From: a virus
Virus record (IMG/VR): IMGVR_UViG_3300045988_164453
Strand: one strand, 5' to 3'
DNA: 59,448 nt
Within the stretch, counting starts at the first letter, position 1. Each line of letters begins with the position of its first letter. Below are positions 1 through 44,651 of this stretch, one piece after another. The position numbers and the translations under genes are program-made. The notes beneath the pieces are model-generated. The model was not told the origin of the DNA and made no database searches. It worked only from the letters and a program-made list of their open reading frames with translations.

Positions 1-55
1 CAGATAAAACTTATGATCTAAATAATGAACTCGATGAAGAGATGACTGAATTTAA
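1..55. repeat. Terminal overlap: nt 1-55 identical to nt 59394-59448 (circular closure or assembly overlap)
   Basis: cagataaaacttatgatctaaataatgaactcgatgaagagatgactgaatttaa is read at both ends. Joining the ends keeps the recombinase ORF in frame. Confidence 0.95.
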
Positions 56-1187
56 AGCGTTCTTTGCTCGTAGAGAATTAAAAATAATAACCAAAAGGAT
101 GCAAAGGGGCCGTATTAAATCAGTTGAAGAAGGCAAATTTATAGCTTCTACTGCCCCATATGGTTATAAGTTTGAATATGATAAAGAAGGTAAAAAATCA
201 CTTGTAATTGACGAAGAAAAAGCAGCTATTGTAAGAAATATATTTGACATGTATATAAATGGAAATGGTGCTTATAAGATAAAGGTATGGCTAGATAATA
301 TAGGTATTAAAACTAATACAGGTATCCCTTTTTCTCAACAAGCTATAGGGAGGATACTAAGGAATAATATATACTGTGGATATGTTACTTGGAATAATTA
401 CAGAAGAAAAGGTACTATAACTAAAAAGCAGCCAAAAGAAAATATAATTATAGCAAAAGGTATCCATGAACCTATTATATCAGAGGAAATTTGGAACAAA
501 GCTGATGAAATAAGACAAAACAATCAAATAGCTCCTTCTGGAAATAATAAAAATTTAACTAATCCATTAGCCGGTCTTGTAAAATGTGCTTGCTGCGGAC
601 ATACTATGACTAATAAATTATCAAATTATAAAGGCGAAGGATATGTCAAATTTATGTGTTGCAAGTCTTGCAATGAAAATCGTGGAGTAAAAATGTATGT
701 ATTAGAGGAGACTATACTCGAATATTTAGAAGATATATTACAAGAGTTTGAAAATCAAATATTATCCAATAAAGTAGAAAATAAAGAAAATGATAGAATT
801 GAAAATCTAAGATGTACTCTATCTTTATTGAAAAAAAAGGCAGTTGAATTAAATAAGCAAAAGAATAACTTACATGATCTACTAGAAAAAGGTGTATACG
901 ATGTTGATACTTATTTAGAACGTACTCAAGTGCTTTCTAAGAAAACAGATGAAAATAAAAATGCTATTGATAGTACATTGGAACTTATAGAAAGTGAAAA
1001 AAACATTAATATAAATTATAATGAATTAGCTATAAGTATAAAATTAGTACTTGAAAATTATAAAAAAACAGATGATATTAAACTTAAGAATTTTCTTTTG
1101 AAGAGTGTAATTGATGAAATTATTTATTTTAAAGAAAAAAACAAAAGGAACGCTAAGTTTGAATTAGATATAAAATTAAAAATATAA
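1..1187 (+). CDS. Large serine recombinase (integrase), C-terminal ~394 aa; continues from 59066..59393 across the junction (full protein 504 aa)
   Basis: The frame is open from nt 3 (DKTYDLNNELDEEMTEFK) and matches the frame at the window end. It has a recombinase domain, a Cys-rich zinc ribbon (CACCGH...CCKSC) and a long coiled coil. Stop at 1185-1187. Confidence 0.9.
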   Translation, partial: DKTYDLNNELDEEMTEFKAFFARRELKIITKRMQRGRIKSVEEGKFIASTAPYGYKFEYDKEGKKSLVIDEEKAAIVRNIFDMYINGNGAYKIKVWLDNIGIKTNTGIPFSQQAIGRILRNNIYCGYVTWNNYRRKGTITKKQPKENIIIAKGIHEPIISEEIWNKADEIRQNNQIAPSGNNKNLTNPLAGLVKCACCGHTMTNKLSNYKGEGYVKFMCCKSCNENRGVKMYVLEETILEYLEDILQEFENQILSNKVENKENDRIENLRCTLSLLKKKAVELNKQKNNLHDLLEKGVYDVDTYLERTQVLSKKTDENKNAIDSTLELIESEKNININYNELAISIKLVLENYKKTDDIKLKNFLLKSVIDEIIYFKEKNKRNAKFELDIKLKI

Positions 1188-1417: not shown

Positions 1418-1452
1418 GGGAGTATATACGTAGAAGCATATACTCCCTTTTT
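1418..1452 (+). terminator. Intrinsic terminator downstream of the recombinase gene
   Basis: GGGAGTATAT / ATATACTCCC 10-bp stem followed by TTTTT. Confidence 0.7.
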
Positions 1453-1471
1453 ATATAATTTTACATAGATT

Positions 1472-1978
1472 TCAATTCCATGATTTGCTAAATTCCTTAT
1501 CTTTAAACAATGATGCTAATCCTGTTATTTGTTTTAATCTTAGTATTTCATCTAAATCCATTCCTATGTTTTTAGCTATCCAAGCATCTGACATTCCGCT
1601 TTCAACTAATTCTGATATTATATTTGACATTAATTCTATGTTATGTGTTCCTCTTGCTCTATTATGTCTTATTGTAGATGCCATCCTGCCTTGAATTGGT
1701 TTATCTATAATTGATACAGGTAAGCATCCATTTTCTCTGTCATAAATATCTTTGTGTGTTTTCATAATTGTATATCTATGATACCCATCAACAATTTCAT
1801 ATATGTCTTCTTCTTCAATATAATAACAAACTACAGGCATAGTATATCCATCTTCTTTTATTGATTGATATAGTAATTTCATTTCTGGCGGTGCTACTGC
1901 ATTAGGATTATAAGCATTTGCTCTTATTTTTTCAATAGGTATAGCTTTTATATCGTAAACTGGACTTTTATAACTCAT
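1472..1978 (-). CDS. ParB/sulfiredoxin-fold protein (IbrB/DndB-like, DGxHR motif)
   Basis: 168 aa; YNPNAVAPPE, IVDGYHRY and RHNRARGTH motifs; AGGAGG RBS; last gene of a tightly packed 6-gene operon. Confidence 0.75.
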   Translation of the reverse strand: MSYKSPVYDIKAIPIEKIRANAYNPNAVAPPEMKLLYQSIKEDGYTMPVVCYYIEEEDIYEIVDGYHRYTIMKTHKDIYDRENGCLPVSIIDKPIQGRMASTIRHNRARGTHNIELMSNIISELVESGMSDAWIAKNIGMDLDEILRLKQITGLASLFKDKEFSKSWN

Positions 1979-1989
1979 AATATTCCTCC

Positions 1990-3315
1990 TTATTTTCCTC
2001 TTATTATATTTTTATATTTTGCAATACTATCTTGTCTTTTTTTAGTTTCTTCCTTTGTTGGTGAAAATCCCATGTATTTGCATAAATGGTCATTTTTCAT
2101 TATGCAAATACACATTCTTTTATATGTTGGTATTAATTTAAATTCAGTAACATTTGTATCATCGAGATATTCATTAAATTTTATAACTTGTTTTGTTTTT
2201 GATCTATTACTTAACTTTCCAGTCTCTATTAATTCAACTCCTTCAATCTTTAACTCTTCTATTGTTTTTTCATCTAAAGCACCTCCAGTATTTTTCCAAA
2301 ATTTTTTAGATGTCTCTAATTTTTTTAAATAATTATTTTTAACTTCTTCTGGAAGAGTTTCTAATAAAAACTCCATATAGCTTTTCCATGTATGCCCTTT
2401 TGGTAATTTTATGCTCTTCCATCCCATAGCAGTAGTTCCTCCGTATATTCCAGCAAAATTTACTCCGTTTACTCTTCCAACTAATTTTGCCCATGTGTTA
2501 GGCTCTATAACTTTATATATTTTTAAACTGTTTACCGCGCAATCATTAAACGGGCTTGCAACTCTCATTTGTTCAATGCTTAATCCTGCTTGATAATATA
2601 GATCGTATAGTTTATTATATTTAAATCCAAATTTTACATTTGCAATCCATATATCTTCTGTTGTCCAATCGTAAATAGGATATGCTTTGAAGGTTAAGTA
2701 GTTATCTTTGTAGATGTTTATCCAGTGCTTATTGTCATATTTAAATTTTTTCATTCTATTATTTCTACTATTTACTGTTCTATACCTATTCATGCTTTCA
2801 TTACTTCTTATTCCTATTGCGACTGCTGTACTTCCATATTTACTAGAAAACCATTTTCCGAATTTATCTTGCAAATCATAATCAAGAGTATCTTTTTTAA
2901 ATTCAAAAGGCACATTGTCTTCATTAATTACATATTTATTTTCAGGCATTTTTCTTGCCCATATGTCAACCACGTCTTTGTCCCATGGGGTCCAATGATC
3001 TTGATGCATTGATACTGCGCATTGTGCAGCAATAGGTAAACATAACCAAAATTTTTTAATTCCTTGAAAATTATTTAAAAAACAATCTGTAACAAAATTA
3101 GTTGTATAATCATATTGAGCTTCATAATCTAAATGATACATAGACAATTTATGTAATTTATTATGTTTTTTAGCATAATCATAACATAAATTTAATAAAA
3201 CTCCACTGTCTTTTCCACCCGAAAATGCAACTAATACATTATCGAATTCATCAAACATATATTTAATTCTATCTATTGATGCTTCATATACATTTTGATT
3301 ATTATATACCTTCAA
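1990..3315 (-). CDS. PAPS-reductase / PP-loop ATP-pyrophosphatase family protein with long C-terminal extension (IbrA-like)
   Basis: 441 aa; PP-loop VAFSGGKDS near the N-terminus; TTG start 6 nt after AGGAGGG; overlaps the SNF2 gene by 14 nt. Confidence 0.75.
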   Translation of the reverse strand: MKVYNNQNVYEASIDRIKYMFDEFDNVLVAFSGGKDSGVLLNLCYDYAKKHNKLHKLSMYHLDYEAQYDYTTNFVTDCFLNNFQGIKKFWLCLPIAAQCAVSMHQDHWTPWDKDVVDIWARKMPENKYVINEDNVPFEFKKDTLDYDLQDKFGKWFSSKYGSTAVAIGIRSNESMNRYRTVNSRNNRMKKFKYDNKHWINIYKDNYLTFKAYPIYDWTTEDIWIANVKFGFKYNKLYDLYYQAGLSIEQMRVASPFNDCAVNSLKIYKVIEPNTWAKLVGRVNGVNFAGIYGGTTAMGWKSIKLPKGHTWKSYMEFLLETLPEEVKNNYLKKLETSKKFWKNTGGALDEKTIEELKIEGVELIETGKLSNRSKTKQVIKFNEYLDDTNVTEFKLIPTYKRMCICIMKNDHLCKYMGFSPTKEETKKRQDSIAKYKNIIRGK

Positions 3316-4819
3316 TTAAATCCCTCCTGTTGTTACCTTTAATTTTTTTAGTTACTTTCTTTCCAAAACTATTTTTAACTTTTATATATTCTGATTTTAT
3401 ATCTTCAAAATTATCTTTGTTATTATCTATTTCTCTTTTGAAAGCATTAACTAAGTTTTCTTTTTTCTTTAAACATTTTATTATTTTTTCATCAAGTGTA
3501 TAAGTAGCGCATATATCTATTATATGCACATTTTTATTTTGTCCTATTCTATGAACTCTGTCCTCACTTTGTGCTCTTGTTGCATAATCCCAATCATTGC
3601 TATAATAAATTATATAGCTACAAAATTGTAAGTTTAAACCATATCCTGCACATGATTTATTTGCAATTAAGAATTTTGATTCATTTTTGAATTTTTTTAA
3701 ATTTTTTTCCCGTTGTTTTATGTTAAGTTCTCCATAAAATTCAATCGCTGCATCTTTCCCATATTTATTATTAATAAGTGTTGCTATATTTTTTATTTCA
3801 TCGGTATATTTACAAAATATGATAGTTTTTTCTGCTATTGTATCAATTATTTCAATCAATTTTTGTATTCTTGGATTGCTTTCAATATTTCCAAAAAAAT
3901 TGACTTTGTTCATTCCAGTAACTTTTTTTACTTCTATTTTTTTATATTCACATTCATACATATCATATTGTTTTATTGTATCTATTTCATGATAAACATT
4001 GACTTTATAGCCAGATATTACATTTTGAAGTGCTGTAAACATTCTATAGATTGTATGAGGTTCTAATTCGTCAATATCGAACATTAAGTCATTTGCTACT
4101 TTTTCATAATGCTTGTATTGTTCTTTAGTTAAGTTGTAATATTTAGTAGAATATGATTTTTCAGGCAAATCTAAACATTCACTTTTTTTAACTTGATAAG
4201 AATAAGATGATATTTTTTTTGATAAATAATCAACATTCAAGCATCTATTAATCTTATTTGGAATATGTTCATCATATTCTATATGATTTCCTGCAAAACT
4301 CCAAAATGATTTATATCCTAAAACTCTCCAATCAAGAATATACCATTGAGCAAATAAATCAACTTCATTTCTTGATATTGGTGTTCCATTTAATATTAAT
4401 TTGTATTTGCAATATTCTGATAATCTTATAATATTTTTTGTTCTTTTTGCAAAAAAATTTTTAACTAAATTACTCTCGTCAACTATTAAATAACAATTCA
4501 TATCTTTTACTAATTCTAACAGTTCAGAATTCACCCTTATGCTACTTGATAATGTTTCTATGCCACAAATTGTAATTAAATCTTTGCATGTATCCCCTGC
4601 GTGCTTTATAATTTCCCTTTGTAGACTTTCTTTGACAGAGTAAGGACATAACCATAGAACATGATTAATTTTACCTTTTTCTAGTCTTATTTTGATTAAT
4701 TCAAGTGCAGTTCTTGTTTTTCCTGTGCCTTGTTCCATATATAATGCTCCGATTTTTATTTTTCTGAGCTTTTCAACACATTTTTTTTGATGTTCGTATA
4801 AATTTGTAAATAATTCCAA
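3302..4819 (-). CDS. SNF2-family helicase/ATPase
   Basis: 505 aa; motif I EQGTGKT, motif II DESN, motif III LNGTP, motif VI QSEDRVHRIGQ; TTG start after AAGGTG. Confidence 0.85.
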   Translation of the reverse strand: MELFTNLYEHQKKCVEKLRKIKIGALYMEQGTGKTRTALELIKIRLEKGKINHVLWLCPYSVKESLQREIIKHAGDTCKDLITICGIETLSSSIRVNSELLELVKDMNCYLIVDESNLVKNFFAKRTKNIIRLSEYCKYKLILNGTPISRNEVDLFAQWYILDWRVLGYKSFWSFAGNHIEYDEHIPNKINRCLNVDYLSKKISSYSYQVKKSECLDLPEKSYSTKYYNLTKEQYKHYEKVANDLMFDIDELEPHTIYRMFTALQNVISGYKVNVYHEIDTIKQYDMYECEYKKIEVKKVTGMNKVNFFGNIESNPRIQKLIEIIDTIAEKTIIFCKYTDEIKNIATLINNKYGKDAAIEFYGELNIKQREKNLKKFKNESKFLIANKSCAGYGLNLQFCSYIIYYSNDWDYATRAQSEDRVHRIGQNKNVHIIDICATYTLDEKIIKCLKKKENLVNAFKREIDNNKDNFEDIKSEYIKVKNSFGKKVTKKIKGNNRRDLIEGI

Positions 4820-4830
4820 TTTATCACCTT

Positions 4831-5349
4831 CTAATCTTCTTCTATCAAATCATCTATAATTTTATTTGTGTTTTTTATACCTACTATTTCAAGAAAATTA
4901 TCAAATAATAAATCTCCTTTTAAATATTGTTTAATTGATGATACTTTGAACATATCATTTTTATTACATATTTTAGTTAATTTACCTTTTAAAACTATAT
5001 AATATCCACTTTCTCCATATTTAATGTTATTATAAGCAATATCTAAAATTTCAAATTCTTTGCACGTATAATTCCCTTCAACGAGACATTCTTTATAATT
5101 ACCAAACGTATGTTCAAAATGTTTATATAAAAGTTTTATGCCATATTTACGATCATATTCACATCTTGCAACATATGGTTGATACTTAATCTCTCTAACA
5201 CTTCTAAAAAAGAACGTATATTCTTCACTTAATTTATCTATTTCTTTTTTAATATTTTTAATATTAATCATCCTATTGTCTATTTCAATCCTAATATCTT
5301 TTGATAATTGTTTAAGTTCTTCTGATGACATATTTTTAAAATCAAACAT
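4831..5349 (-). CDS. Hypothetical protein (172 aa), operon member
   Basis: ORF with AAGGGGA RBS, 1-nt gap to the upstream gene, no recognisable motif. Confidence 0.6.
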   Translation of the reverse strand: MFDFKNMSSEELKQLSKDIRIEIDNRMINIKNIKKEIDKLSEEYTFFFRSVREIKYQPYVARCEYDRKYGIKLLYKHFEHTFGNYKECLVEGNYTCKEFEILDIAYNNIKYGESGYYIVLKGKLTKICNKNDMFKVSSIKQYLKGDLLFDNFLEIVGIKNTNKIIDDLIEED

Positions 5350-5350
5350 A

Positions 5351-5776
5351 CTATTTCCCCTTTTCTATTACTATTTTATTATCTATTAATTTAATAATAA
5401 CATTTCTATCTTCTTCTGTTATACCTAATGATTTTACCCAAGATGTAGGAATAGTAACTCTATTTGTTATAGCATTGCCTCTTGCAGTGCCTCCGCTTTT
5501 TGCAAACTGCATTTTTGCTTTTCTTTGATTATACTTAGGAATAGCTAAAAATCCCCATTCAAACATATATCTCCTTCCTGCTCTATCATATTCGTAGTTT
5601 TCTACTTCTGGATATACATCTATATATTTACAAAGAAAATCATAATTTTCTTCTGAAAAATCATCAAATGAATAAGATTCAAAATTCATACCATTTTTTC
5701 TTAAAAATTCATTTACTTCTCTTAGTCCCTCAAAAAAGTTTGAATATTTTTTACCTAATCTATACCATTTATTCAT
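5351..5776 (-). CDS. Protein with C-terminal AbrB/SpoVT/MazE-like swapped-hairpin domain (141 aa)
   Basis: C-terminal RVTIPTSWVKSLGITEEDRNVIIKLIDNKIVIEK. ATG at 5776 follows GAGAGGTG; the track start at 5791 lies inside that RBS. Confidence 0.5.
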   Translation of the reverse strand: MNKWYRLGKKYSNFFEGLREVNEFLRKNGMNFESYSFDDFSEENYDFLCKYIDVYPEVENYEYDRAGRRYMFEWGFLAIPKYNQRKAKMQFAKSGGTARGNAITNRVTIPTSWVKSLGITEEDRNVIIKLIDNKIVIEKGK

Positions 5777-5794
5777 AATAACACCTCTCAAAAT

Positions 5795-6247
5795 TTACAT
5801 ATTTTCAAATTCCCTTACTAATGACCATATAAATTTAACTTGTTTTTTAGGTTCATATAACAAAGTATTTTCTATCATATAATCTTTTAAACCTCTGAAA
5901 TTTTCTATAAAGAACTTAGCTTCTTCTTGAACTAATATATTCTTTAATGATGCCTGAGCTATAACATACATATTATCATCTAGCCATGTAGATTTCGCCA
6001 TTTTATACATGTCAACACCTTCTATTGCTTTTTCAAATATTTCATTTACTTTTATAATTCTATTTCTTATGTCTTCTGCCCATTTAACTTGTTTTTCAGT
6101 CCCTTTAAGCTCTACCATTTCTTTACCTCCTTTTTGAGACAAGAAAGACAAACATAAACTTAATTGAGTCATATAATCAACATCTCCATATTTATTTACT
6201 ATTTCCCTTGTCATTTTATGAGCTTCTTTCATTAAATTTCTTTTCAT
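5795..6247 (-). CDS. Hypothetical protein (150 aa), first gene of the operon
   Basis: GGAGGTAAGG RBS; sits directly behind the promoter at 6280-6306. Confidence 0.6.
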   Translation of the reverse strand: MKRNLMKEAHKMTREIVNKYGDVDYMTQLSLCLSFLSQKGGKEMVELKGTEKQVKWAEDIRNRIIKVNEIFEKAIEGVDMYKMAKSTWLDDNMYVIAQASLKNILVQEEAKFFIENFRGLKDYMIENTLLYEPKKQVKFIWSLVREFENM

Positions 6248-6279
6248 CTTCCTTACCTCCTATATCTTTTATTAATTAT

Positions 6280-6306
6280 ATTATAGCACAATTCGAGTCG
6301 AATCAA
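6280..6306 (-). promoter_or_regulatory. Sigma-A-type promoter of the SNF2/PAPS-reductase/ParB operon
   Basis: Minus strand reads TTGATT-N15-TGCTATAAT (extended -10). Confidence 0.5.
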
Positions 6307-6392: not shown

Positions 6393-8681
6393 CTAGTTCT
6401 TTATTTTTAATTCAGCAGGTAAATGAGTTATAAAAGCCTTCTTACCTTTAGATGTAGCAACTAAATTCAAACTATGCCATCTTTCTAAGTTCAAAAGGTC
6501 CTCTACTTCATAACCTTCTTTTTCAAAATCACTCCTAAAAGAACTGAATGCATTTTCATCTACTCCACTTATAAGCATATAACTAGCATTAGCATTTCTC
6601 ATGGCCCTTTGAGCATCTTGTGATAACTGTTGCAAGTAATGTAAAGTTAATACATACTTTAACCCAAATTTAGCACTTTGAACAAAATTTTTAGCTAATA
6701 TCTTTTGAGCACATGGAGTTTGAAATATTTCATCTATTAATACAGTTACTCTGTCAGGTAAATTATGCATAGTCCCTCTTATCTTTAATGCAGCCCATAT
6801 TTTTTGTAAGAAAAATGAAGTCAATATATCAATAGAAATATCATCATCAAAATCTTTATCTCTCATTCTTATAAGTATTACTTTGCGTTCTTCCATAGCT
6901 TTTACAAAATCTATATTGTTTTCTGGAGTCTTGCTTATCATTTCATCTATTATTATATTTTCTCTCATCAAGTCGATTCTATCTAAGATCCCCTCTATTT
7001 TTATTTCCTTAGTTCCAGTAACTTCACCCTTTTTATTTACTTCATCCAATTCATTTAGTGATAGTATACTATCTTTTAGTCTATCTTTTAATTCTTCACT
7101 TAATTTATTTATATATTTATATCTAATTTCATGGAATTGCAGTATATTTAATACATCCTTCATACATGAATTTGGAAAACAAAATGCAATTCTTGCAGCT
7201 GCTCCTAAATATTTTCGCATTTTTGGTGATAGTTCTTTATCATCTCCATTTATTATATTTACTATTTTTAATAAGTTATTAGTTTGTTTTCTTGATATAC
7301 TTGATATTTCATAAGCACTCATATCAGAAGTAATCTTAAATTCATTATAACAAAGGCTTTGTATCATTTTAGGATTAGAAAGATCTATATCTATCAATCT
7401 ATCTTTTGGAGTTATAGCTTTTATATTATTTGCCAACTCACAATCTTTGATAAAGTCTAATGCTATCAATCCTTCATTATTATCTATAATATTTTTACTT
7501 AGATTAATACTAAAAGTTGATTTACCACTTCTAGAAGCTCCTAATATTGCTAGTGGTAATGATTGTAGGTTTATATCATCACTTAGGAAAGCTTCTTGAT
7601 AAGTCTCTTTATATTTATTTATACCTAAGCTAATAATACCTTTTGTTAATTCTTTTGGTACTGGATTTTCTTTAGTTTCTTTATGAGTTATGTTTTTATA
7701 TTGATCTATTAATTCTGCCCCTGGTAAAGAAATAAAATTTGAACACTCTTCTGTACTAGTAGAATTTATCTTAACATTGTTAATTATATATCTATTTATA
7801 TCTGTATCTTTTTTTATTTTTGTATAAATTAATTCATTGTCTCCGTTAATTTTAGAAAAACTATTATAAATAGACTGGCATAATTGATTTTCTCTTGATT
7901 TTTCCTCTGAATGAGCTAAAATTAGAGTCTGATTTTTAAGTATTTCCTTTTGAAGCTTTCTTTGGGTGCTAGAAGAGGTTTCTTTTCCTAAAGGATAAAG
8001 TATAAGCTGACTATTTTGCTCTCCATTTAAAAGACAATTTAAAAGGGCATTTATCAAGTCTATTAAAAATTTTAGTGCTATTTTTGAATAATCCAATAAA
8101 TTTTTAGATTTCTTTAAGTTTTCTCCGTTTTTATATCTTTGTATAGTTTCACTACTCTTCTTTTTAAAGTAATTACTTTCTTTTTCTGACACAGGAATAA
8201 AATTATATAGTACTCCTATAAATTCATTTTCTTGTAAAATTTCTAATGTAGATAAATTGGCTGATAATAAATCATTATTTCTTCTATCGGTTTCCAAAGA
8301 TAATGCATCATCAAATTTGTAATATAATTGGTATTTACTACATGAATTAATATCTACTGGAATTGCATCTACAACTTTTATATCTACATTTTTCCATGTA
8401 TCGGAAAATTTACTTTTAAATTGATTCTGAAATATTTTAGGAATAATAAAATAAAAAGATATGTTTTCTTTAGATATGTGTATATAGTAAGAAGCTTTTA
8501 ATCTAGTTTCTATTATTAGCTTTTTATTTTCTTTATAGATAAGTTTATTAGTGCTTCTATACATACTATTAATAAGATGTGCTATTCCTATAGTTGTATT
8601 ATTTCTACTGCTTTTAGTTGGAATTAATTTAAATGTTACATATTCTTGTCTTTTAATTGAATAATAATCACTTAATTTCAT
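6393..8681 (-). CDS. FtsK/HerA/VirB4-superfamily P-loop ATPase (762 aa)
   Basis: Walker A GASRSGKST lies mid-protein, followed by a GLIALDF strand, Walker B VTVLIDEIF ~260 aa later, then TLHYLQQLS. ATG at 8681 follows AGGAGA and overlaps the upstream stop (ATGA). Confidence 0.7.
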   Translation of the reverse strand: MKLSDYYSIKRQEYVTFKLIPTKSSRNNTTIGIAHLINSMYRSTNKLIYKENKKLIIETRLKASYYIHISKENISFYFIIPKIFQNQFKSKFSDTWKNVDIKVVDAIPVDINSCSKYQLYYKFDDALSLETDRRNNDLLSANLSTLEILQENEFIGVLYNFIPVSEKESNYFKKKSSETIQRYKNGENLKKSKNLLDYSKIALKFLIDLINALLNCLLNGEQNSQLILYPLGKETSSSTQRKLQKEILKNQTLILAHSEEKSRENQLCQSIYNSFSKINGDNELIYTKIKKDTDINRYIINNVKINSTSTEECSNFISLPGAELIDQYKNITHKETKENPVPKELTKGIISLGINKYKETYQEAFLSDDINLQSLPLAILGASRSGKSTFSINLSKNIIDNNEGLIALDFIKDCELANNIKAITPKDRLIDIDLSNPKMIQSLCYNEFKITSDMSAYEISSISRKQTNNLLKIVNIINGDDKELSPKMRKYLGAAARIAFCFPNSCMKDVLNILQFHEIRYKYINKLSEELKDRLKDSILSLNELDEVNKKGEVTGTKEIKIEGILDRIDLMRENIIIDEMISKTPENNIDFVKAMEERKVILIRMRDKDFDDDISIDILTSFFLQKIWAALKIRGTMHNLPDRVTVLIDEIFQTPCAQKILAKNFVQSAKFGLKYVLTLHYLQQLSQDAQRAMRNANASYMLISGVDENAFSSFRSDFEKEGYEVEDLLNLERWHSLNLVATSKGKKAFITHLPAELKIKN

Positions 8682-8851
8682 AGTAGACACTCTCCTAATA
8701 TTGACAATACAAGATATACCCCTATAGCTATAGTTGGACCATGCTTACATTTATCTAAACCATAGGCATATAATATAAAGCTTACTAACCCACTGATTAA
8801 GCATAAGTTATATGAACATCCTAATATGCTAAAGATTATTTTAGATTTCAT
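8678..8851 (-). CDS. Small membrane protein (57 aa, two hydrophobic helices); below ORF-track cutoff
   Basis: MKSKIIFSILGCSYNLCLISGLVSFILYAYGLDKCKHGPTIAIGVYLVLSILGECLL; GGAGGTG RBS; stop overlaps the ATPase start. Confidence 0.6.
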   Translation of the reverse strand: MKSKIIFSILGCSYNLCLISGLVSFILYAYGLDKCKHGPTIAIGVYLVLSILGECLL

Positions 8852-8862
8852 AATATCACCTC

Positions 8863-9255
8863 CTAGAAATTAATCTTACTAAACATATTAAATAATGAAG
8901 GATATAGTTTAATTAATACATAAGTTAATAGATACTGCATTCCTGATGTTGTTGCCTCTTTAAAGCTTCCTCCAGCAATCATAGTAGATATTATCTCCTT
9001 CAGCCCTAGACCTAAAAATGAATACTTAGCTAATACTAACAACATATCTATTATTTGTTTAGCTGAATTATTTAAACTCACTTCAAAACTTTCTGCATAA
9101 ATTATATTATTATTTTTCATTAGCAAAGCTACTAATAATACTAATCTTGAATATACAACTTTATTTCTTTTGATATGATCTAAGAACTTTTCTATCATAT
9201 TCAAGTCCTCTTCTTCTAAATGTAAAAATTCCGAAAAAGTGTAATATTTTACCAT
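8863..9255 (-). CDS. Membrane protein (130 aa) with a signal-like helix and two further hydrophobic segments
   Basis: VVYSRLVLLVALLM..IIYA, then IIDMLLVLAKYSFLGLGL and YLLTYVLIKLYPSLF; AGGGGGA RBS. Confidence 0.65.
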   Translation of the reverse strand: MVKYYTFSEFLHLEEEDLNMIEKFLDHIKRNKVVYSRLVLLVALLMKNNNIIYAESFEVSLNNSAKQIIDMLLVLAKYSFLGLGLKEIISTMIAGGSFKEATTSGMQYLLTYVLIKLYPSLFNMFSKINF

Positions 9256-10570: not shown

Positions 10571-11377
10571 ATGAAAGATTTAATACCAGTAAAATTTAAT
10601 GAAGAGGTAGTTATAACTACTAAAATGTTAGCAGATGTTTATGAGACTGAAGAAATAAGAATACAACAAAATTTCAATAGCAACCAAGAAAAATTCAAAG
10701 AAGGAAAACATTACTATAAACTACAAGGCAATGATTTAAAGGAATTCAAAAGGGTACTAGTTAAAAACGAAGACCCTTTATATCAAGAAATTAAATTTGC
10801 TTCAGTCTTAATACTTTGGACTAAACGAGGTGCTAGTAGACATTGTAAAATGTTAGGAACTGATAAAGCATGGGAAATGTTCGATACATTAGAAGAAAAT
10901 TATTTCAACCCAAAACCACAATTAACAAAACACGACCAAGCAATATTAAATATAATCAATTCAAGAACAGACCTAGAAAAAGCCATAGCAATCAAAGATT
11001 TTGAAAAAGTAGTAACTGAACCACTACAAGATGAAATAAAAGTATTAAAACCTAAAGCACATTATACAGATATAATTTTACAAAATAAAGGATTAATCAA
11101 AGTAACATCAATAGCAAAAGATTATGGAATATCTGCTCAAGAGTTTAATAAATTACTTTGTGATTTTAAAATACAATATAGATTAGGCAATCAATGGTTT
11201 TTATATAAAAAATATCAAAATAAGGGATATACTCATTCTGAAACAGTAAATTACAAACATAAAGATGGTAGAGATGATGTGAGTATTATAACTAAATGGA
11301 CTCAAAAGGGAAGATTATTCTTGTATGAGTTTTTAAAAGAAAAAGATATTTTACCTATAATAGAAAAAGATTTATAA
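10571..11377 (+). CDS. Antirepressor-type protein (ORF6N/KilA-N-like N-terminus plus KilAC C-terminus)
   Basis: N-terminal VVITTKMLADVYETEEIRIQQNFNSNQEKFKEGKHYYKL; C-terminal VTSIAKDYGISAQEFNKLL...KWTQKGRLFLYEFL. Confidence 0.7.
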   Translation: MKDLIPVKFNEEVVITTKMLADVYETEEIRIQQNFNSNQEKFKEGKHYYKLQGNDLKEFKRVLVKNEDPLYQEIKFASVLILWTKRGASRHCKMLGTDKAWEMFDTLEENYFNPKPQLTKHDQAILNIINSRTDLEKAIAIKDFEKVVTEPLQDEIKVLKPKAHYTDIILQNKGLIKVTSIAKDYGISAQEFNKLLCDFKIQYRLGNQWFLYKKYQNKGYTHSETVNYKHKDGRDDVSIITKWTQKGRLFLYEFLKEKDILPIIEKDL

Positions 11378-11426
11378 AATTAAAGTAGACTACTCTTTTG
11401 AGTAGTCTATGGAAAGGATGATAGTT

Positions 11427-12425
11427 ATGAATATACCTTATGTATTTAAGAAATGTAGTAAATGTGGTGAATGGTTGGTAGCAAGTACAGTTAATTTTAA
11501 AAAAGCAAAAGCAGGAAAATATAAATTATATTCTAAATGTAAAATGTGCGAAAGAGAATATCGTTTAAAAAATCAAGGCTATATGCAACAATATTATCAA
11601 AATAATAAAGATAAAATTAAATATCAACAAAAAAAATACTATGAAAAACATAAAAAAGATATTCTCAATAAAAATAAAGAATACCGTAATAAAAACAAAG
11701 AAAAAATATCTGAATATGAAAAAAATTATAGGATACAAAATCATGAACACATTTTGAAACGTAATAGACAGCACTATCAGAATAATAAAGAATCTATATT
11801 AAAACAACATAAACAATATTATGAAGCTAATAAAAATACTATTTTACTTCAACATAAACAATATTATGAAAAACATAAAGAACATTTATCCGAATGTAAA
11901 AAACAATATTATGAAAAACATAAAGAACATTTATCCGAGTATTACAAAGACTATTATAATAAAAATAAAGAAAAAATATCTGAATATAAAAAAAGATATA
12001 ATGAACAAAACAAAGAATATATTAGAGAATATGATAAACAAAGAAATAAAACATTAAAAAGAAAAATATGTAAATTTAATTCCACTTCTAAAAGAAGATT
12101 AAAGGAAGAAAATCAAGGTAATGGTATAAAACAAAATCAGTGGTTAGAAATGATGGATTACTTCGATTGGAAATGTGCTTATAGTAATGTAGATCTAACA
12201 AAAGAAAACAGAAGCATAGACCATATAAAACCAATTAGTTTAGGTGGAGAACATGAAATTTGGAATGTCGCTCCAATGTTAAAAAACTATAATTATCAAA
12301 AACAAGATAAAAAAATGCTTCAATGGTACAAAAAACAAGACTTCTTTAGTGAAGAAAGATTACAAAAGATATATGAGTGGCAAGAATACGCATATAATAA
12401 GTGGCATAAAAATGAAAGAATATAA
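11427..12425 (+). CDS. HNH endonuclease with N-terminal zinc ribbon and ten tandem 15-aa Lys/Tyr-rich repeats
   Basis: CSKCGEW...CKMC; repeats KxYYxxNKExIxxxx; C-terminal IDHIKPISLGGEHEIWNVAPMLKNYN. The probable ATG at 11427 follows AAAGGA. Confidence 0.75.
   Translation: MNIPYVFKKCSKCGEWLVASTVNFKKAKAGKYKLYSKCKMCEREYRLKNQGYMQQYYQNNKDKIKYQQKKYYEKHKKDILNKNKEYRNKNKEKISEYEKNYRIQNHEHILKRNRQHYQNNKESILKQHKQYYEANKNTILLQHKQYYEKHKEHLSECKKQYYEKHKEHLSEYYKDYYNKNKEKISEYKKRYNEQNKEYIREYDKQRNKTLKRKICKFNSTSKRRLKEENQGNGIKQNQWLEMMDYFDWKCAYSNVDLTKENRSIDHIKPISLGGEHEIWNVAPMLKNYNYQKQDKKMLQWYKKQDFFSEERLQKIYEWQEYAYNKWHKNERI
11856..11938 (+). repeat. Near-perfect 45-nt tandem duplication inside the HNH repeat array
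   Basis: aaacaatattatgaaaaacataaagaacatttatccga occurs at 11856 and again at 11901. Confidence 0.9.
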
Positions 12426-13692: not shown

Positions 13693-14571
13693 TTATACTT
13701 TCTTTACATATTTATCAGATGCAGTTATGTAAAGTCCTGATTCTAAGCGATACATAGGAGTATTCCCATTTTTAGCATCTACTGTATCTATTACTTGTAG
13801 ATGTTGCCCCTTCTTAACTGTTGTAACTGGATCTGCATCCCAATCTGCTACTTTTCTTATATTAAGTTTATCAAGTGTTATTATTTCAAATTTCTTTGTA
13901 GTTGCTTTAGTTTCTTCCTTCTTAGGTTCTGCTTTTTCCCCTTCTACATAGTTCTTTACATCTTTTATGAAATGAGCAAACCCATCAGGAGAACATCCAT
14001 ATCCCCAAAATGCAGTGCCTGGACAAGTTTTAGCACTTCTTGAAGGATTATATTTTCCTAAGTAAGTACCACCGGCAGTAAACCAACAATGAGGTCTTAT
14101 ATGTGAAGTATTTACCGGTATGTCAAATCTCTTACATAATTCACCATAAAGATATATTACTGCCTTCTTTTGTGCAGCGGTTATTTTATCGTGTCCTTTG
14201 TCGAAACAACCGTATATTTCTATGCAGATGGCATTTGTATTCCAACCTCTAATACCAATTGGAGTACTATTCAAATTACGTCCAGTTGTTATTTTACCGT
14301 CAGGAAAAACATTAAAGTGTTGTGCAATATAATGACCATGTCCATCATTATAATGCCATTTACTTTTTCCATAAGAATCTAAAGATTGAGTTCTTCCAAA
14401 ATGTGGTTCGGCAAATACTTTTTTATCTGTTTTTTCCCACGTACTGTAGCTAGGCATATCCATATGATGTACTTGTAATTTTGTTATTGTTCTACTTACG
14501 TGTTGTTTTGCTAACCAATTTTTAACATCTTTTTCATTTTCTAATAATGTAAAACCATTTTTAGTCTTCAT
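13693..14571 (-). CDS. Endolysin: N-acetylmuramoyl-L-alanine amidase (Amidase_2/PGRP type) with C-terminal SH3b-like domain
   Basis: 292 aa; LQVHHMDMPS, NAICIEIYG and HIRPHCW...KTCPG motifs; C-terminal LNIRKVADWDADPVTTVKKGQHLQVID. Confidence 0.8.
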   Translation of the reverse strand: MKTKNGFTLLENEKDVKNWLAKQHVSRTITKLQVHHMDMPSYSTWEKTDKKVFAEPHFGRTQSLDSYGKSKWHYNDGHGHYIAQHFNVFPDGKITTGRNLNSTPIGIRGWNTNAICIEIYGCFDKGHDKITAAQKKAVIYLYGELCKRFDIPVNTSHIRPHCWFTAGGTYLGKYNPSRSAKTCPGTAFWGYGCSPDGFAHFIKDVKNYVEGEKAEPKKEETKATTKKFEIITLDKLNIRKVADWDADPVTTVKKGQHLQVIDTVDAKNGNTPMYRLESGLYITASDKYVKKV

Positions 14572-40972: not shown

Positions 40973-41998
40973 TTAAGTATTTTCAATATATTTTTTCTTC
41001 CATTCATTAAATGTCATATTGCTTGGTATCTCAATTCTTTTTCCATTCTTATCTCTTGCAAATCTTGTGCTATTTTCATCATCTTCATCTTCATAGTACA
41101 ATAAAGAAGTGCATCTACACGAAGGATGCAGCGGGCTGCAATTTTTACCAGGTATCATATCTTTTACATTGAATATTTTTAAATCTAAATTACCACAAAC
41201 TTTACAAGTTCTTTCATCTGGAGTAGCAAGAAATTGATATTTTTCAACTTTTAAATCTTCATAAGTAATTTTATTAGCTTGTTCCATAACATAACTATGC
41301 TCTGTCTGTACTAATCTGACTGCATTTTTATAGCTTGCATTCATTCTAGTAGCAACTCTTTGTGATACTTTTTTACTACTCTCTCCTCTGATTAACATCT
41401 GTGTTATTTCTTCTTTGATTGTTTTACTTAGCTGTTGTTTATTATTCCATATTCTGCCCGAATAATTGTTGCCACTCCACTCATAACTCAAAACTCTTTC
41501 AATAGTTTTATTATCTATTCCGCTGAAGTTTGCTAAAAATCCTTTTTCTTTACTTATGTTATATACATTTTTATAATAATCATCTTTAAGAGTTTGTGTT
41601 AAGAGCTTCTTAGTGCCTTTTTCAGCTTCTATATTTAGTTTATTGAGTTGTTTATCAATCTCATACTGTAAAGCCTCTAGCCTTGTTATCCTACTTTTCA
41701 TAGCTAAAGTATTAAGCTCTAATAATAGCTCCGGATTATCTTCAATCATTTCAAGATATCCTTTTATATCAGTTCTCCATATTTTAAACTCATTTCCTGT
41801 TAAATATTTAGTTGCTTCTGCATAAGTTAATTGATTATCTTTTGCATATTTTTCAAATAGATTATTAATTTCTTTTTCTATTTCTTTATTTGCTAGTTTA
41901 TAATGATGTTCTAATTCTTTAGCTAAATTATTACAATCCTTAATGCCTTTATTGAGTTTCTGATTTTCTCTATCTATCCAATACTGTTTACTATTCAT
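40973..41998 (-). CDS. Head morphogenesis protein (SPP1 gp7 / Mu F-like)
   Basis: YSGRIWNNKQQL..., VQTEHSYV, DERTCKVCGNLD...PLHPSCRC. ATG at 41998 overlaps the portal stop. Confidence 0.8.
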   Translation of the reverse strand: MNSKQYWIDRENQKLNKGIKDCNNLAKELEHHYKLANKEIEKEINNLFEKYAKDNQLTYAEATKYLTGNEFKIWRTDIKGYLEMIEDNPELLLELNTLAMKSRITRLEALQYEIDKQLNKLNIEAEKGTKKLLTQTLKDDYYKNVYNISKEKGFLANFSGIDNKTIERVLSYEWSGNNYSGRIWNNKQQLSKTIKEEITQMLIRGESSKKVSQRVATRMNASYKNAVRLVQTEHSYVMEQANKITYEDLKVEKYQFLATPDERTCKVCGNLDLKIFNVKDMIPGKNCSPLHPSCRCTSLLYYEDEDDENSTRFARDKNGKRIEIPSNMTFNEWKKKYIENT

Positions 41999-43382
41999 TA
42001 TCTTCTTCACCTACTTCAGCAGGTTTTTCTTGTTGCATTTCATAAGGTTGTTCAAATATCGACTCTTCTTGTTGTTTTTCTTCATCTAATCTTTCCTCTT
42101 CTTTTACTGTATCTTCTACCCAAGGGTGATTTTCTAGTATTGTTTTCTTAGATATTATTCCAGTAGACATTTGAGCTATTTGTGCTGCTTCTAAATCATT
42201 AGATATCATATTTCTAGTATAAGTCTGAGCTATTTTATAATTTTCTGTTATTCCTAAAAATTTTAAAATAGCCTTTATTAAATGATTTATAGATGTTCTA
42301 AATTCAGTTTCTAATAAACCAGATTTTAATTCTAACTTTCTATAGTAAAATTTAAGAGCGACTCCACTTACACTTCCTGTAACTTCTATATCTTGTTGTA
42401 ATCCTTGTCCAGATTCATATATTTGCTTTTTAAGATATTCTATAAGTACATTTCTAGCTTCAACAGGTATATCTATACTTAATGTAGACAATCCTCCACT
42501 GTTTCCATCAATAGATTCTGTTTTTACAGTTTTATATCTTTTTAAATCTGATAGAAATTCATTCAAATCAGTTCCGCCATAATTCTCAAGTATATATATT
42601 ATTTGTTGTATGTCTTCTATATCATTAGCAAATCCACTAACAACAACATCTTTTAAATCCAATAAACTTTTAATTTTTTCTAAGTCACTTTGTTTTTCTT
42701 TGTTATTAGAAAATTCGATAAACGGAACATCTCCTAAGGTATGTGTTATATCTTCACTTTCTTCTATTGGAGTATTAGTGAAGCTATCTTTCATTTTCCA
42801 TCTAATCATTTTATTATCTGTCCAATATTCAATATAAGCATATGTAATTTCATCTAATTGATTTAAAACTTCTTCTTTTACTTTGTAATATCTAATTATG
42901 TTTTTTAGCTTTCTTTCTAATCCATTATCATATACTGGTATAATTTCTTCTGTATTTACTACTTCATATTTAAATTTACTCTCTTTTGTATCTTCATCTA
43001 TTTCAATCCAATAATGCATCCATGCAGTTCCACAATTACTTGCCTCTATTCCAATATTTTTTAATTTTCTTTCAAATCCATCACCTAAACTTTGATTAAC
43101 TTTTTCATTAATTTCTTCATTATCTTCTATATCAATTATAGGAGGGTATGTAAATAGGTATGATATTTTTTCATCTACTAGTATTTGATGAATATTATGT
43201 GGTATTCGATTATCTGCATTTCTTAATGGATCTTTACCTTCTCTTTTTGGTATTATTCCTTTAAGTAAAATATCATTTTTATTATTATAATAGTTTTTGG
43301 CAGTTCTTATCGTATCTACTTTGCTTTGATTGTTTAATATTTTAGCCTGTATTCTTTGTAAAAGTAACCCATCTTCTAACAT
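41991..43382 (-). CDS. Portal protein (SPP1 gp6-like)
   Basis: 463 aa; ATG at 43382 after GGAGGTG; follows the terminase large subunit. Confidence 0.8.
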   Translation of the reverse strand: MLEDGLLLQRIQAKILNNQSKVDTIRTAKNYYNNKNDILLKGIIPKREGKDPLRNADNRIPHNIHQILVDEKISYLFTYPPIIDIEDNEEINEKVNQSLGDGFERKLKNIGIEASNCGTAWMHYWIEIDEDTKESKFKYEVVNTEEIIPVYDNGLERKLKNIIRYYKVKEEVLNQLDEITYAYIEYWTDNKMIRWKMKDSFTNTPIEESEDITHTLGDVPFIEFSNNKEKQSDLEKIKSLLDLKDVVVSGFANDIEDIQQIIYILENYGGTDLNEFLSDLKRYKTVKTESIDGNSGGLSTLSIDIPVEARNVLIEYLKKQIYESGQGLQQDIEVTGSVSGVALKFYYRKLELKSGLLETEFRTSINHLIKAILKFLGITENYKIAQTYTRNMISNDLEAAQIAQMSTGIISKKTILENHPWVEDTVKEEERLDEEKQQEESIFEQPYEMQQEKPAEVGEEDNE

Positions 43383-43394
43383 TTTTATCACCTC

Positions 43395-44651
43395 CTATTT
43401 AAATACTTGTATATTGTTTTTAACTTTCATTTCATTTTCTAATGCATATCTAGTGGCATCAATCGAATGGTTATCCTTATCTTCTAGTTTAGATATTGTA
43501 TTGCCATCCCTATCAGTTTGATAATCTATATTTTCAAATTCTCGTGCTGTATTTGGTGTTCTTTTACTATCTATAACAATTGCTTCTAAATCATCTAGCC
43601 AATTTTCCCCAAACTCCACTGAACCTGGTCCTTTCTTAGCCCTTGTTGCTTTTATCCCATATTCTCTAAGCTCTGCTATGCTACGTGGTTCAGATGCATC
43701 GCAAGTTACCGGGAAATCATCATATTTCTTTAATTTAATTTTTGAAGCTAATTCTCTAATAGACATTTTAACTCCATAAATTTCATCTATAAAATATAAC
43801 ATTCTCTTTTTACTATCGTAGTGTATTCTAACAAATGCCATAGGGTCTGTAGCATATCCAAAGTCATTTCCTTGTTTAATATTATCAAAAGATTTTATTT
43901 CTTCATCTGTTATTCTTCTAAACTCCAAATTAGAAAAAGGAACTACTCCTGAGCCTATAGGTTCTCCTAAATATTCCCATCTATATTTAAATTCGTTTTT
44001 CTTTTTTACTTCCTCAGCTTCATCAATAAATGCTTTTGATATATGAGGATTATCTAAATAAGTACTATGATGGATATATGTATTATCTGCAACGAATTGC
44101 GTTTCAAATTTTTTATTGACCCATGATTGCTTTCTCTTAGGTGGATTATAAGAATATATAACTTTATAACTTAATTCTTTTGGTAATTCTGCTCTTAATA
44201 CCGAATTAATTATTATTGACACTTCATCTTCGGATTTGAATTCTGCCAGCTCTTCTATCCATACAAAGCTTATAGGATATTTACTCATTTTAATTGATTT
44301 AATTTTTGTTGGATCATCTGCCCCTCTAAATATAAAACTGTTTCCTCTAGGAATGTATATTAATTTAAGCGGAGACTTTTGTATTCTCCATACATGATTA
44401 ACGCCTAATATATCTATAGCCTCTTTTAACTGTTCAAATACTGACTCAGCTAATGTATTACCAACTTTTCTGATACATAGACAAGTTACTGGATATTTCA
44501 TTAATGCTAGTACTAACCATAGCGATACATGAGTTGATTTAGCGGATGCTCTGCCACCTTTTAATACATGAAATAGATATTTATTAGAGTTAATTGTTTT
44601 CCAAAATTCATAAAAGTTTTTATTTATAATTTCTGATATTCTTTTATTCAT
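43395..44651 (-). CDS. terL: Terminase large subunit (PBSX XtmB-like)
   Basis: 418 aa; Walker A LKGGRASAKST; overlaps the small-subunit stop. Confidence 0.85.
   Translation of the reverse strand: MNKRISEIINKNFYEFWKTINSNKYLFHVLKGGRASAKSTHVSLWLVLALMKYPVTCLCIRKVGNTLAESVFEQLKEAIDILGVNHVWRIQKSPLKLIYIPRGNSFIFRGADDPTKIKSIKMSKYPISFVWIEELAEFKSEDEVSIIINSVLRAELPKELSYKVIYSYNPPKRKQSWVNKKFETQFVADNTYIHHSTYLDNPHISKAFIDEAEEVKKKNEFKYRWEYLGEPIGSGVVPFSNLEFRRITDEEIKSFDNIKQGNDFGYATDPMAFVRIHYDSKKRMLYFIDEIYGVKMSIRELASKIKLKKYDDFPVTCDASEPRSIAELREYGIKATRAKKGPGSVEFGENWLDDLEAIVIDSKRTPNTAREFENIDYQTDRDGNTISKLEDKDNHSIDATRYALENEMKVKNNIQVFK

Follow-up and report, generated by a model that had tools for sequence, protein, structure and literature searches.

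The minus-strand operon of six genes at positions 1472-6306 of IMGVR_UViG_3300045988_164453, a stretch of viral DNA of 59,448 nucleotides (nt) that is referred to below as the window, is a lineage-specific version of a widespread SNF2-IbrA-IbrB module and not an unprecedented composition. The last three genes encode an SNF2-family ATPase of 505 amino acids (aa; 3302..4819), an IbrA-type enzyme of 441 aa (1990..3315) and an IbrB-type ParB/Srx-fold protein of 168 aa (1472..1978). They are preceded by genes for three small proteins designated p150, p146 and p172 according to their lengths. An initial annotation of the window had found no described system to which this composition could be matched. 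This view has to be given up, as SNF2-IbrA-IbrB turned out to be a collinear module that is common in phages and also occurs in hundreds of bacterial genomes. We tentatively propose that the module serves the phage as a machine that modifies DNA at the expense of ATP and assign a probability of about 0.4 to this reading.

Distribution of the SNF2-IbrA-IbrB module

Eighty viral loci fetched via IbrA and three phage records served for comparison; the queries were all six proteins of the operon and three from its neighbourhood. IbrB follows IbrA in all 79 viral loci with at least 600 nt of downstream sequence. An SNF2 gene is situated upstream of IbrA in 52 of the 72 viral loci that extend at least 1.5 kb in this direction and is the immediate neighbour of IbrA in 47. 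Relative to the window proteins, median identity is 74% for IbrB (81 loci), 54% for IbrA and 30% for SNF2. This gradient of conservation, which runs from IbrB via IbrA and SNF2 down to the adaptors, as we term the variable proteins encoded before SNF2, is consistent with chemistry and substrate being universal and the targeting part being variable. The complete six-gene set is not a conserved unit, because p150, p146 and p172 accompany IbrA in this phage lineage only. Clustering of open reading frames (ORFs) resolved two types of module, one in which a small protein is followed by SNF2, IbrA and IbrB and a helicase-less one with a protein of about 140 aa (family f10). Homologues of IbrA make up more than 7,110 clusters from many phyla.

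Among cultured phages, the collinear module is present in Lactobacillus helveticus phages AQ113 and CR28, Clostridium scindens phage phiCs5676-1, Streptococcus thermophilus phage CHPC877 and the PY phages of Streptococcus equinus. The hosts of carrier phages include Lactobacillus, Streptococcus, Fusobacterium and Clostridium scindens, among others. Gene order is adaptor-SNF2-IbrA-IbrB as in the window, except for Fusobacterium phage phiFN37, in which SNF2, IbrA and IbrB cluster in another order. The adaptors differ, being of the f18 type in AQ113 and of the f20 type in phiCs5676-1 as compared to p150, p146 and p172 in the window, and the SNF2 proteins are only 28-48% identical to that of the window. 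In the cultured phages of Firmicutes the module is located after the lysin, which is the same place as in the window, and in several loci it is found just upstream of terminase genes. S. thermophilus phage D4276, mycobacteriophage Gaia and the apparently strictly lytic Flavobacterium phage FCL-2 are further cultured carriers. CHPC877 belongs to the lytic genus Moineauvirus. The presence of the module in lytic FCL-2 and CHPC877 and in loci that abut terminase genes favours use by the phage over use by the lysogen. The prophage-borne IbrA/IbrB pair of Escherichia coli exhibits the same two-gene architecture, with a PAPS_reduct plus DUF3440 protein followed by a ParB_N protein, and an E. coli phage gene annotated as IbrA encodes a protein with 30% identity to IbrA from the window (E 6e-60). 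Unlike the window, the E. coli version PhiR5_2 does not feature an SNF2 gene or a tailed adaptor upstream of the pair.

Bacterial carriers were represented by the best 80 of at least 542 matching genome stretches from many phyla, 75 of which were analysable. SNF2 is present in 25 of these 75 loci. Members of the Bacteroidetes mostly contain a gene for a protein of about 131 aa without Pfam match, followed by IbrA and IbrB. This protein resides directly before IbrA-IbrB in Phocaeicola vulgatus (L155, 7595-9790) and in about 35 other Bacteroidetes loci; a GNAT-like nature was rejected because there is no Pfam match, and homology to f10 was rejected on the basis of the f10 profile (E >0.005). IbrB proteins from Bacteroidetes are still very similar to the phage protein.

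Some loci feature conspicuous gene arrangements around the pair. In phage phiFN37, an IbrA-IbrB-hyp-helicase cluster (L002, 720-7776) is located about 2.5 kb away from a gene resembling queuine-tRNA-ribosyltransferase (DpdA-like) that is accompanied by a second ParB-like gene of its own and by a gene for a queuosine-precursor transporter. Two separate combinations of an enzyme with a ParB-like protein thus coexist in a single phage. In mycobacteriophage Gaia, the IbrA homologue has a ParB-like partner of 299 aa (gp104; L174, 4808-5707) whose annotation reads ectoine-synthase/ParB multidomain protein, and the gene preceding IbrA, labelled exonuclease/helicase, encodes only 298 aa. In a metagenome-assembled genome from an alphaproteobacterium, a gene for an Mrr_N-domain protein lies directly upstream of IbrA-IbrB (L093, 7561-7980); Mrr_N forms the winged helix at the N-terminus of Mrr restriction enzymes. 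A gene of the amidoligase family (phrog_2443, 1.2e-52) is found a few genes upstream of four SNF2-IbrA-IbrB modules with f7-type adaptors (L034, L045, L046 and L049).

Properties of IbrA, IbrB and SNF2

The profile libraries Pfam, PHROGs, PADLOC and NCBIfam concur on the domain content of the operon. The initial annotation had described IbrA as a PP-loop/PAPS (phosphoadenosine phosphosulfate) reductase-type enzyme with a long C-terminal extension, and this was corroborated. Residues 27-241 match PAPS_reduct (PF01507; 47.3 bits, cut-off 22.5), while the extension is a DUF3440 domain (PF11922; residues 244-425; 299 bits, cut-off 25). The complete protein matches phrog_2302 (2.3e-105). The PP-loop motif SGGKDS is intact and invariant, and adenylyl transfer from ATP is to be expected of IbrA because the full PP-loop is kept. 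Three cysteines (Cys92, Cys402, Cys412) show no variation, and a fourth one, Cys404, is conserved in at least 85% of cases. Three-cysteine [4Fe-4S] sites occur in DndC and in tRNA thiolases, and the pattern formed by Cys92, Cys402, Cys412 and, nearly, Cys404 recalls these sites. The AlphaFold2 (AF2) model of IbrA, with a predicted local distance difference test (pLDDT) score of 79.2, matched adenosine phosphosulfate (APS)/PAPS reductases, CysD, flavin adenine dinucleotide (FAD) synthase, TtuA and NcsA via its N-terminal domain only, and the fold match is at the level of the superfamily only, with a template modelling (TM) score of about 0.3 when normalised to the query.

IbrB contains a ParB_N domain (PF02195; 27.5 bits, cut-off 26.3), and DGYHR(Y) replaces the ParB GERRxR box, aligning to GERRWR of Noc. 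The earlier assignment to DGxHR-type ParB-fold proteins was therefore correct. IbrB matches phrog_2159 with 9.2e-81 and the N-terminal part of phrog_498 with 3.5e-12. The latter family comprises phage ParB-DNA-methyltransferase fusions, which are enriched in phages (PMC12704722). The C-terminal part of IbrB looks like a helix-turn-helix. None of the PADLOC models, including those for DndB and DpdB, was matched by IbrB. Its gene is situated directly downstream of IbrA in the same operon, at a spacing of 11 nt.

The SNF2 ATPase contains SNF2-rel_dom (PF00176; 41.6 bits) and Helicase_C (PF00271; 61.7 bits), both above the Pfam cut-offs. Motifs I, II, III and VI (GTGKT, DESN, NGTP and QSEDRVHRIGQ) are intact in the translation, in full agreement with the helicase motifs read from the sequence before. 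A match to phrog_62 (1.9e-94) covers the helicase part of this profile of 1,881 positions. SNF2 proteins are translocases on double-stranded DNA.

In GenBank, homologues of IbrA and IbrB are labelled 'phosphoadenosine phosphosulfate reductase' or 'ParB-like partition protein', which would point at an ordinary function in auxiliary sulfate assimilation or in plasmid partition. The respective scores are far from the required values, with 21.2 bits for IbrA against CysH (TIGR00434; cut-off 165.1), 25.1 bits against CysD (cut-off 195) and 22.1 bits for IbrB against parB_part (TIGR00180; cut-off 58.45). IbrA retains the complete SGGKDS motif, which PAPS reductases are not known to possess. ParA was not seen among the profiled window proteins and neighbours, the remainder of the window being unscreened, and the element integrates via a recombinase. 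The tight coupling to SNF2 fits neither pathway. Both readings are effectively excluded.

IbrA could also be an RNA-modifying PP-loop enzyme similar to TtcA, TtuA or TilS that acts on tRNA or rRNA and alters decoding or shields tRNAs from anticodon nucleases, with IbrB and the helicase as accessory factors. TtuA and NcsA, the nearest structural relatives with Fe-S cysteines, are tRNA enzymes, as is TilS, and three invariant cysteines, as present in IbrA, are typical of [4Fe-4S] tRNA thiolases. A chromosomal context resembling that of housekeeping genes in Bacteroidetes and E. coli would likewise suit a cellular RNA function. On the other hand, the similarity to tRNA enzymes is weak in all cases, with E values of 0.2-0.7 in sequence comparisons and TM scores of about 0.3 in fold comparisons, no RNA-binding domain such as THUMP or PUA was detected in the Pfam search, and the obligate ParB-fold partner as well as the frequent SNF2 translocase belong to DNA-associated families. 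We consider an RNA target very unlikely.

Several established systems share features with the module. DndB/DndC, and also SspD/BrxP, combine a DGxHR-type protein of the ParB superfamily with a PP-loop ATP pyrophosphatase that contains conserved cysteines, just as in the window. DndC is the best match of IbrA in the defence library PADLOC, where the similarity is restricted to residues 150-243 (1.2e-8, 32 bits). In NCBIfam, IbrA reaches 26.6 bits against DndC (TIGR03183) at a cut-off of 290.4. The match lies in the N-terminal domain only, and DUF3440 takes the place of the C-terminal part of DndC. BrxP is matched over just 34 residues (19.2 bits). The operon differs from Dnd, Ssp and BREX systems in that DndA, DndD, DndE, SspB/C, PglZ and BrxC are lacking and in that IbrB matches no DndB model. 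IbrB, p150, p146 and p172 are without PADLOC match, and neither an SMC-like (structural maintenance of chromosomes) ATPase nor a desulfurase is encoded by the six genes. Partners from BREX type 4 or Ssp (DUF4007, BrxC/SspC, PglZ, BrxL) were not detected in the operon by Pfam and PADLOC, and the same holds true in PADLOC for Zorya and DISARM partners among the operon proteins. The score of SNF2 against ZorD in NCBIfam is 47.4 bits (cut-off 1500) and that against DrmD 41.5 bits (cut-off 610).

The Dpd system includes SNF2-like helicases (DpdE/J) reminiscent of SNF2 from the window. DpdE itself scores 29.7 bits in NCBIfam (cut-off 500) and 76 bits in PADLOC, where only the C-terminal helicase lobe is covered. 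This partial match to the SNF2 helicase domain is the only one to Dpd in PADLOC, and preQ0 pathway genes do not occur in the operon. The initial annotation had set the operon apart from Dnd, BREX type 4 and Dpd, and we agree. As in the window, a small ParB-fold protein is encoded beside the DNA-modifying enzyme in DpdA/DpdB and in ParB-dependent thymine dioxygenases (PMC10164549; PMC13229309). DpdA requires its ParB-like partner (PMC10164549, as described in PMC12839542), and a subclass of phage thymine dioxygenases needs such a partner only on double-stranded DNA (PMC13229309). The catalytic partner is a tRNA-guanine transglycosylase (TGT) or a dioxygenase in these cases, whereas it is a PP-loop enzyme in the window. 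A resemblance to ParB-methyltransferase fusions is apparent from IbrB matching the ParB part (phrog_498) and SNF2 matching the helicase part of phrog_62. Methyltransferase-helicase anti-restriction proteins of phages and plasmids, such as DarB of phage P1 and polyvalent proteins, likewise unite a DNA-modifying enzyme with a ParB domain and with an SF2/SNF2 (superfamily 2) motor on a mobile element. Compared to these proteins, the components are separate proteins in the window, the enzyme is not a methyltransferase and there is no hint of packaging into or injection from the virion.

The SNF2 translocase, the match of IbrB to ParB-methyltransferase fusions and the ParB dependence of DpdA and thymine dioxygenase favour a reaction in which DNA is modified covalently. 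In our preferred reading, adaptor, SNF2, IbrA and IbrB would form one DNA-directed machine. The SNF2 motor would translocate on double-stranded DNA, and the variable adaptor, p172 in the window, would dock on the motor via its C-terminal tail and set where or when the motor acts. IbrB would load on DNA as a nucleoside triphosphate-dependent clamp or activator and present the DNA to IbrA, which would spend ATP to adenylate an oxygen of the backbone or of a base. The adenylated oxygen would subsequently be exchanged, with sulfur delivered by way of the cysteines or of an Fe-S cluster as the most plausible substitute. Such a mark may shield phage DNA against host nucleases while it is replicated or once it is packaged, or it may reprogramme the recognition of DNA by proteins, and the AbrB-like p146 would regulate the operon. 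A more far-reaching version, in which the four-part machine performs an undescribed DNA modification, possibly a sulfur adduct of backbone or base formed without DndA, DndD and DndE, and in which interchangeable adaptors plugged in by their tails choose what is marked, appears rather doubtful to us.

A number of points weigh against a DNA-modifying machine of the phage. Most PP-loop enzymes act on tRNA or on small molecules. The AF2 model of IbrA is weak at residues 400-441, the region of Cys402, Cys404 and Cys412. All matches to named systems, those of IbrA to DndC and CysH included, are far below the curated cut-offs, and a desulfurase (DndA), DndD/E, TGT or a nuclease was not found among the six proteins of the operon, the rest of the window being unscreened. 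The evidence from adaptor tails, presented below, relies on a pattern derived from the same data. IbrAB is located in a non-mobile chromosomal setting beside gdhA- and mdh-like housekeeping genes in Phocaeicola vulgatus, and E. coli K-12 carries the pair as ybdNM, such that the core activity is not specific to phages. Some proteins with a ParB fold are kinases or simple regulators (PMC12704722). In the literature, we found no study of IbrA/IbrB biochemistry or of DNA modification in a carrier phage, and the sole published IbrAB phenotype, as related in citing papers, is the activation of prophage eib genes (Sandt et al., 2002).

This activation, as far as it is described there, is the only recorded genetic phenotype of IbrAB and would be explained directly if the module were a switch of gene expression. 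IbrB would then be a sliding clamp similar to VirB or KorB that counters silencing or recruits RNA polymerase, SNF2 would act like RapA, and IbrA would supply or consume a nucleotide signal, so that phage or host genes are turned on without any chemical mark. The SEED label 'co-activator of prophage gene expression' on homologues is in line with this idea, as are the position of several loci at the early/late boundary before terminase genes, where late activators usually reside, and the control of E. coli ybdNM by a LysR repressor. SNF2 shows a weak similarity to RapA (5.1e-11), although 41.5 bits are far from the cut-off of 576 bits. The invariant PP-loop and cysteines of IbrA point at catalysis, and we know of no transcription factor with the PP-loop fold of this protein. 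Moreover, the phage already has a sigma factor of its own (51136-52044), and DNA damage with SOS induction, for instance, might account for the eib phenotype in an indirect manner. A switch of this kind is in our opinion unlikely.

Putative adaptors and exchange of the cassette

The gene just before SNF2 belongs to at least three unrelated families. According to hhalign, families f7, f18 and f34 form one superfamily, while f20 and the p172 family are unrelated to this superfamily and to each other. When f20 is aligned with the p172 family, the tails are the only parts that align. An affiliation of p172 with the small f7/f18/f34 adaptors is unsupported as well (hhalign probability at most 1.1%, tails alone aligning). 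Many of the proteins nevertheless end alike, for example in IIDDLIEED in p172 (codons 4834-4860), ILDDLKEED in f20, IIDDLLDD in f18, NIIEELRK and TIDRLKK in f7 and VLDELKD in most p172 homologues. A regular expression for this tail, written after the data had been seen, matches 20 of 43 distinct proteins encoded upstream of SNF2 as compared to 8 of 1694 other ORFs. The tail is absent from helicase-less IbrAB modules, and SNF2 genes in replication modules without IbrAB (Acinetobacter phage DMU1, Vibrio phage VP5) do not have a tailed neighbour. An origin as by-product of the ribosome-binding site of the following gene was rejected, since AAGGTGA lies past the stop codon and the tail codons before it, and since other tightly coupled genes do not share the motif (8 of 1694). 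The sequences suggest that the tail may be a docking peptide for SNF2 and that the variable bodies may be targeting or sensing parts. The C-termini of SNF2 proteins exhibit motifs of their own. A conserved ..ELKExL is present in modules of the f7 type (L019-L080), and the clade including the window protein ends in ..DLKEG or ..DLIEGI, similar to adaptor tails. In the window, the codons for the SNF2 tail overlap the ribosome-binding site and the start codon of IbrA (3302-3330).

Protein p172 (4831..5349, minus strand, 172 aa) is the putative adaptor for the SNF2 motor. Just 34 representative homologues were retrieved from 1.84 billion proteins, most of them ending in ..[VI][LI]DELKD. The AF2 model has a mean pLDDT of 90.7 (about 57 in the tail) and predicts a long N-terminal helix, a beta sandwich of eight strands, a pair of short helices and, at the C-terminus, a flexible tail of acidic character. 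Despite the confident model, a fold could not be assigned, as there was no significant neighbour in PDB (best E 0.028, TM <0.3) or in BFVD, where two uncharacterised proteins were the only matches. Like p172, p150 (5795..6247, minus strand, 150 aa), the product of the first gene, does not match any model in Pfam, NCBIfam or PADLOC. It is similar to phrog_6775 (1.2e-23), and its residues 42-129 resemble the middle of the f20 proteins of about 390 aa (f20 profile, E 2.4e-12), which are encoded directly before SNF2 in the closest related modules. Gut metagenomes contain more than 100 near-identical variants of p150 (89-99% identity). Residue 99 is A, T, I, E or V among them and most other positions are fixed. 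A diversity-generating mechanism was rejected because the alignment is made up of ordinary allelic mosaics.

The second gene encodes p146 (5351..5791, minus strand), which is 146 aa in length or 141 aa if translation starts at the probable ATG at 5776. Its N-terminal half is without assignment, and the C-terminal part is an AbrB/SpoVT-like DNA-binding domain of the swapped-hairpin type. The AbrB/MazE-like domain proposed earlier finds support in phrog_2329 (1.4e-19), whereas Pfam MazE_antitoxin remains below its cut-off (19.2 versus 24.7 bits). Stand-alone homologues of the AbrB-like end with 60-74 aa are encoded just downstream of IbrB in three loci (L004, L005 and L008). On the basis of its domain, p146 is a candidate regulator of the operon.

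The exact p172 protein is indexed in 131 blocks of a metagenome collection. We compared six independent contigs of 54-61 kb from ENA assemblies, apparently of human gut samples. A block of 4.7 kb differs from the window by 0-3 nt in these contigs, and the flanks are variable. In two contigs (L085 and L088), a tyrosine integrase replaces the serine recombinase and homology stops at about 1270-1285 of the window. In L089, the upstream gene for a 765-aa protein is only 68% identical and homology resumes at about 6412. This gene is split in L090 (470 + 309 aa). Given the mosaic junctions on both sides, the description of the operon as self-contained is justified, and the observations support the conclusion that the six-gene set behaves as an exchangeable cassette in related gut phages.

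Exchange as a unit among related phages would also be expected of a prophage-borne system for anti-phage defence or superinfection exclusion, in which the lysogen expresses the module, SNF2 and the adaptor sense incoming DNA and IbrB, as a ParB-like nuclease or NTPase, and IbrA damage it or deplete nucleotides. The operon has a candidate promoter of its own and is situated between lysis genes and integrase, a common site of accessory genes that lysogens express, SNF2 resembles the helicase parts of ZorD, DpdE, DrmD and BrxH, and the variable adaptor has the appearance of a sensor or specificity part under diversifying pressure. This contrasts with an unusual degree of conservation for arms-race effectors (median 74% for IbrB and 54% for IbrA), with the lack of any PADLOC model at the family level, IbrB being without any match, and with the lack of a recognisable nuclease effector other than the ParB fold. 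The housekeeping-like loci from Bacteroidetes have no defence-island context. Carriage by FCL-2 and by CHPC877, a member of the lytic genus Moineauvirus, together with these Bacteroidetes loci and the strong conservation of IbrA and IbrB, weakens a pure role in defence of the lysogen, and we regard such a role as distinctly unlikely.

Operon structure, genomic setting and significance

In gene order, the junctions of the operon measure +3 (or +18), +1, +11, -14 and +11 nt, the value of +18 applying when p146 starts at ATG 5776, where the ribosome-binding site is better. The ORF coordinates thus reproduce the range of -14 to +18 nt given for the six minus-strand genes in the initial annotation. 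All six genes have good ribosome-binding sites, with the exception of the longest form of the p146 gene; that of p150 is GGAGG at 6260-6256. A candidate extended -10 promoter is located at 6280..6306 on the minus strand and consists of TTGATT (6306-6301), 12 nt, TGC and TATAAT (6285-6280). It is plausible from the sequence that this promoter drives the operon. A promoter at this place had been noted before, but the notation N15-TGCTATAAT was three bases off and should be N12-TGC-TATAAT. Our scan for consensus promoters accepts spacers of 16-18 nt only and did not list the promoter because the hexamers are just 15 nt apart. Promoter-like matches in this AT-rich DNA are at chance level (56 found in the region versus 71 expected, i.e. 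no excess), such that the candidate is a reasonable but unproven reading. A riboswitch or another RNA element controlling the operon was rejected, as there is no Rfam or tRNA match within the window and the leader comprises only about 30 nt.

The operon is preceded by an intrinsic terminator of the neighbouring operon, in accordance with the earlier description. This hairpin (6369-6352, minus strand; 7-bp stem, four GC pairs, T-run) follows the stop codon of the gene for the 765-aa protein by 24 nt and marks the 5' boundary of the cassette. As there are two terminator-like sites in 9.5 kb where 1.8 are expected, it is only the position of the hairpin that is informative. A perfect 10-bp hairpin at 1418..1447, 25 nt 3' of the IbrB stop codon, marks the 3' boundary. 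Its T-run is on the plus strand only, and it therefore better fits a terminator of the recombinase gene.

Judged by its gene content, the window is a temperate tailed phage of low GC content (about 28%) with genes for terminase (43395-44651), portal (41991-43391) and RecT (53934-54815). As stated in the initial annotation, the operon resides between integrase and lysis genes, with a large serine recombinase (42-1187, plus strand) on one side and an amidase endolysin (13693-14571, minus strand) on the other. A second operon and a plus-strand accessory cluster lie between the six genes and the endolysin. The second operon (6393-9255, minus strand) encodes hydrophobic proteins of 130 and 57 aa and the 765-aa protein, a P-loop protein of phrog_5156 with weak matches to mad8 and AAA_14. 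An antirepressor (10571-11377) and an HNH-type endonuclease (11409-12425) are encoded in the accessory arm, and two relatives instead carry an IS605 OrfB/TnpB (Cas12f-like) gene at this place (L087, 2849-3991; L089, 2795-3937). An inverted repeat of 20 nt with 95% complementarity extends from the recombinase stop codon onward (1187-1234), and the junction at which L085 and L088 switch to the tyrosine integrase cassette is situated just past it.

Few phage-associated gene pairs without known biochemistry are as widespread and as well conserved as IbrA/IbrB, with IbrB being about 74% identical between phages of different phyla. Our analysis adds that the pair usually comes with an SNF2 motor, that the motor has a variable partner, about half of these partners sharing a C-terminal peptide, and that the set is exchanged as a cassette. 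Taken together, these findings yield a concrete and testable model of the components, and several carriers are in culture. If the module does not mark DNA, the long-standing phage annotations 'PAPS reductase' and 'partition protein' still need correction. If it does, it would represent a new pathway of DNA modification and a new strategy of anti-restriction. Should the more far-reaching version with its four-part machine hold true, a pair that has been annotated since 2002 and is found by the thousand in genomes of phages and bacteria would stand for a new and widespread epigenetic or anti-restriction chemistry.

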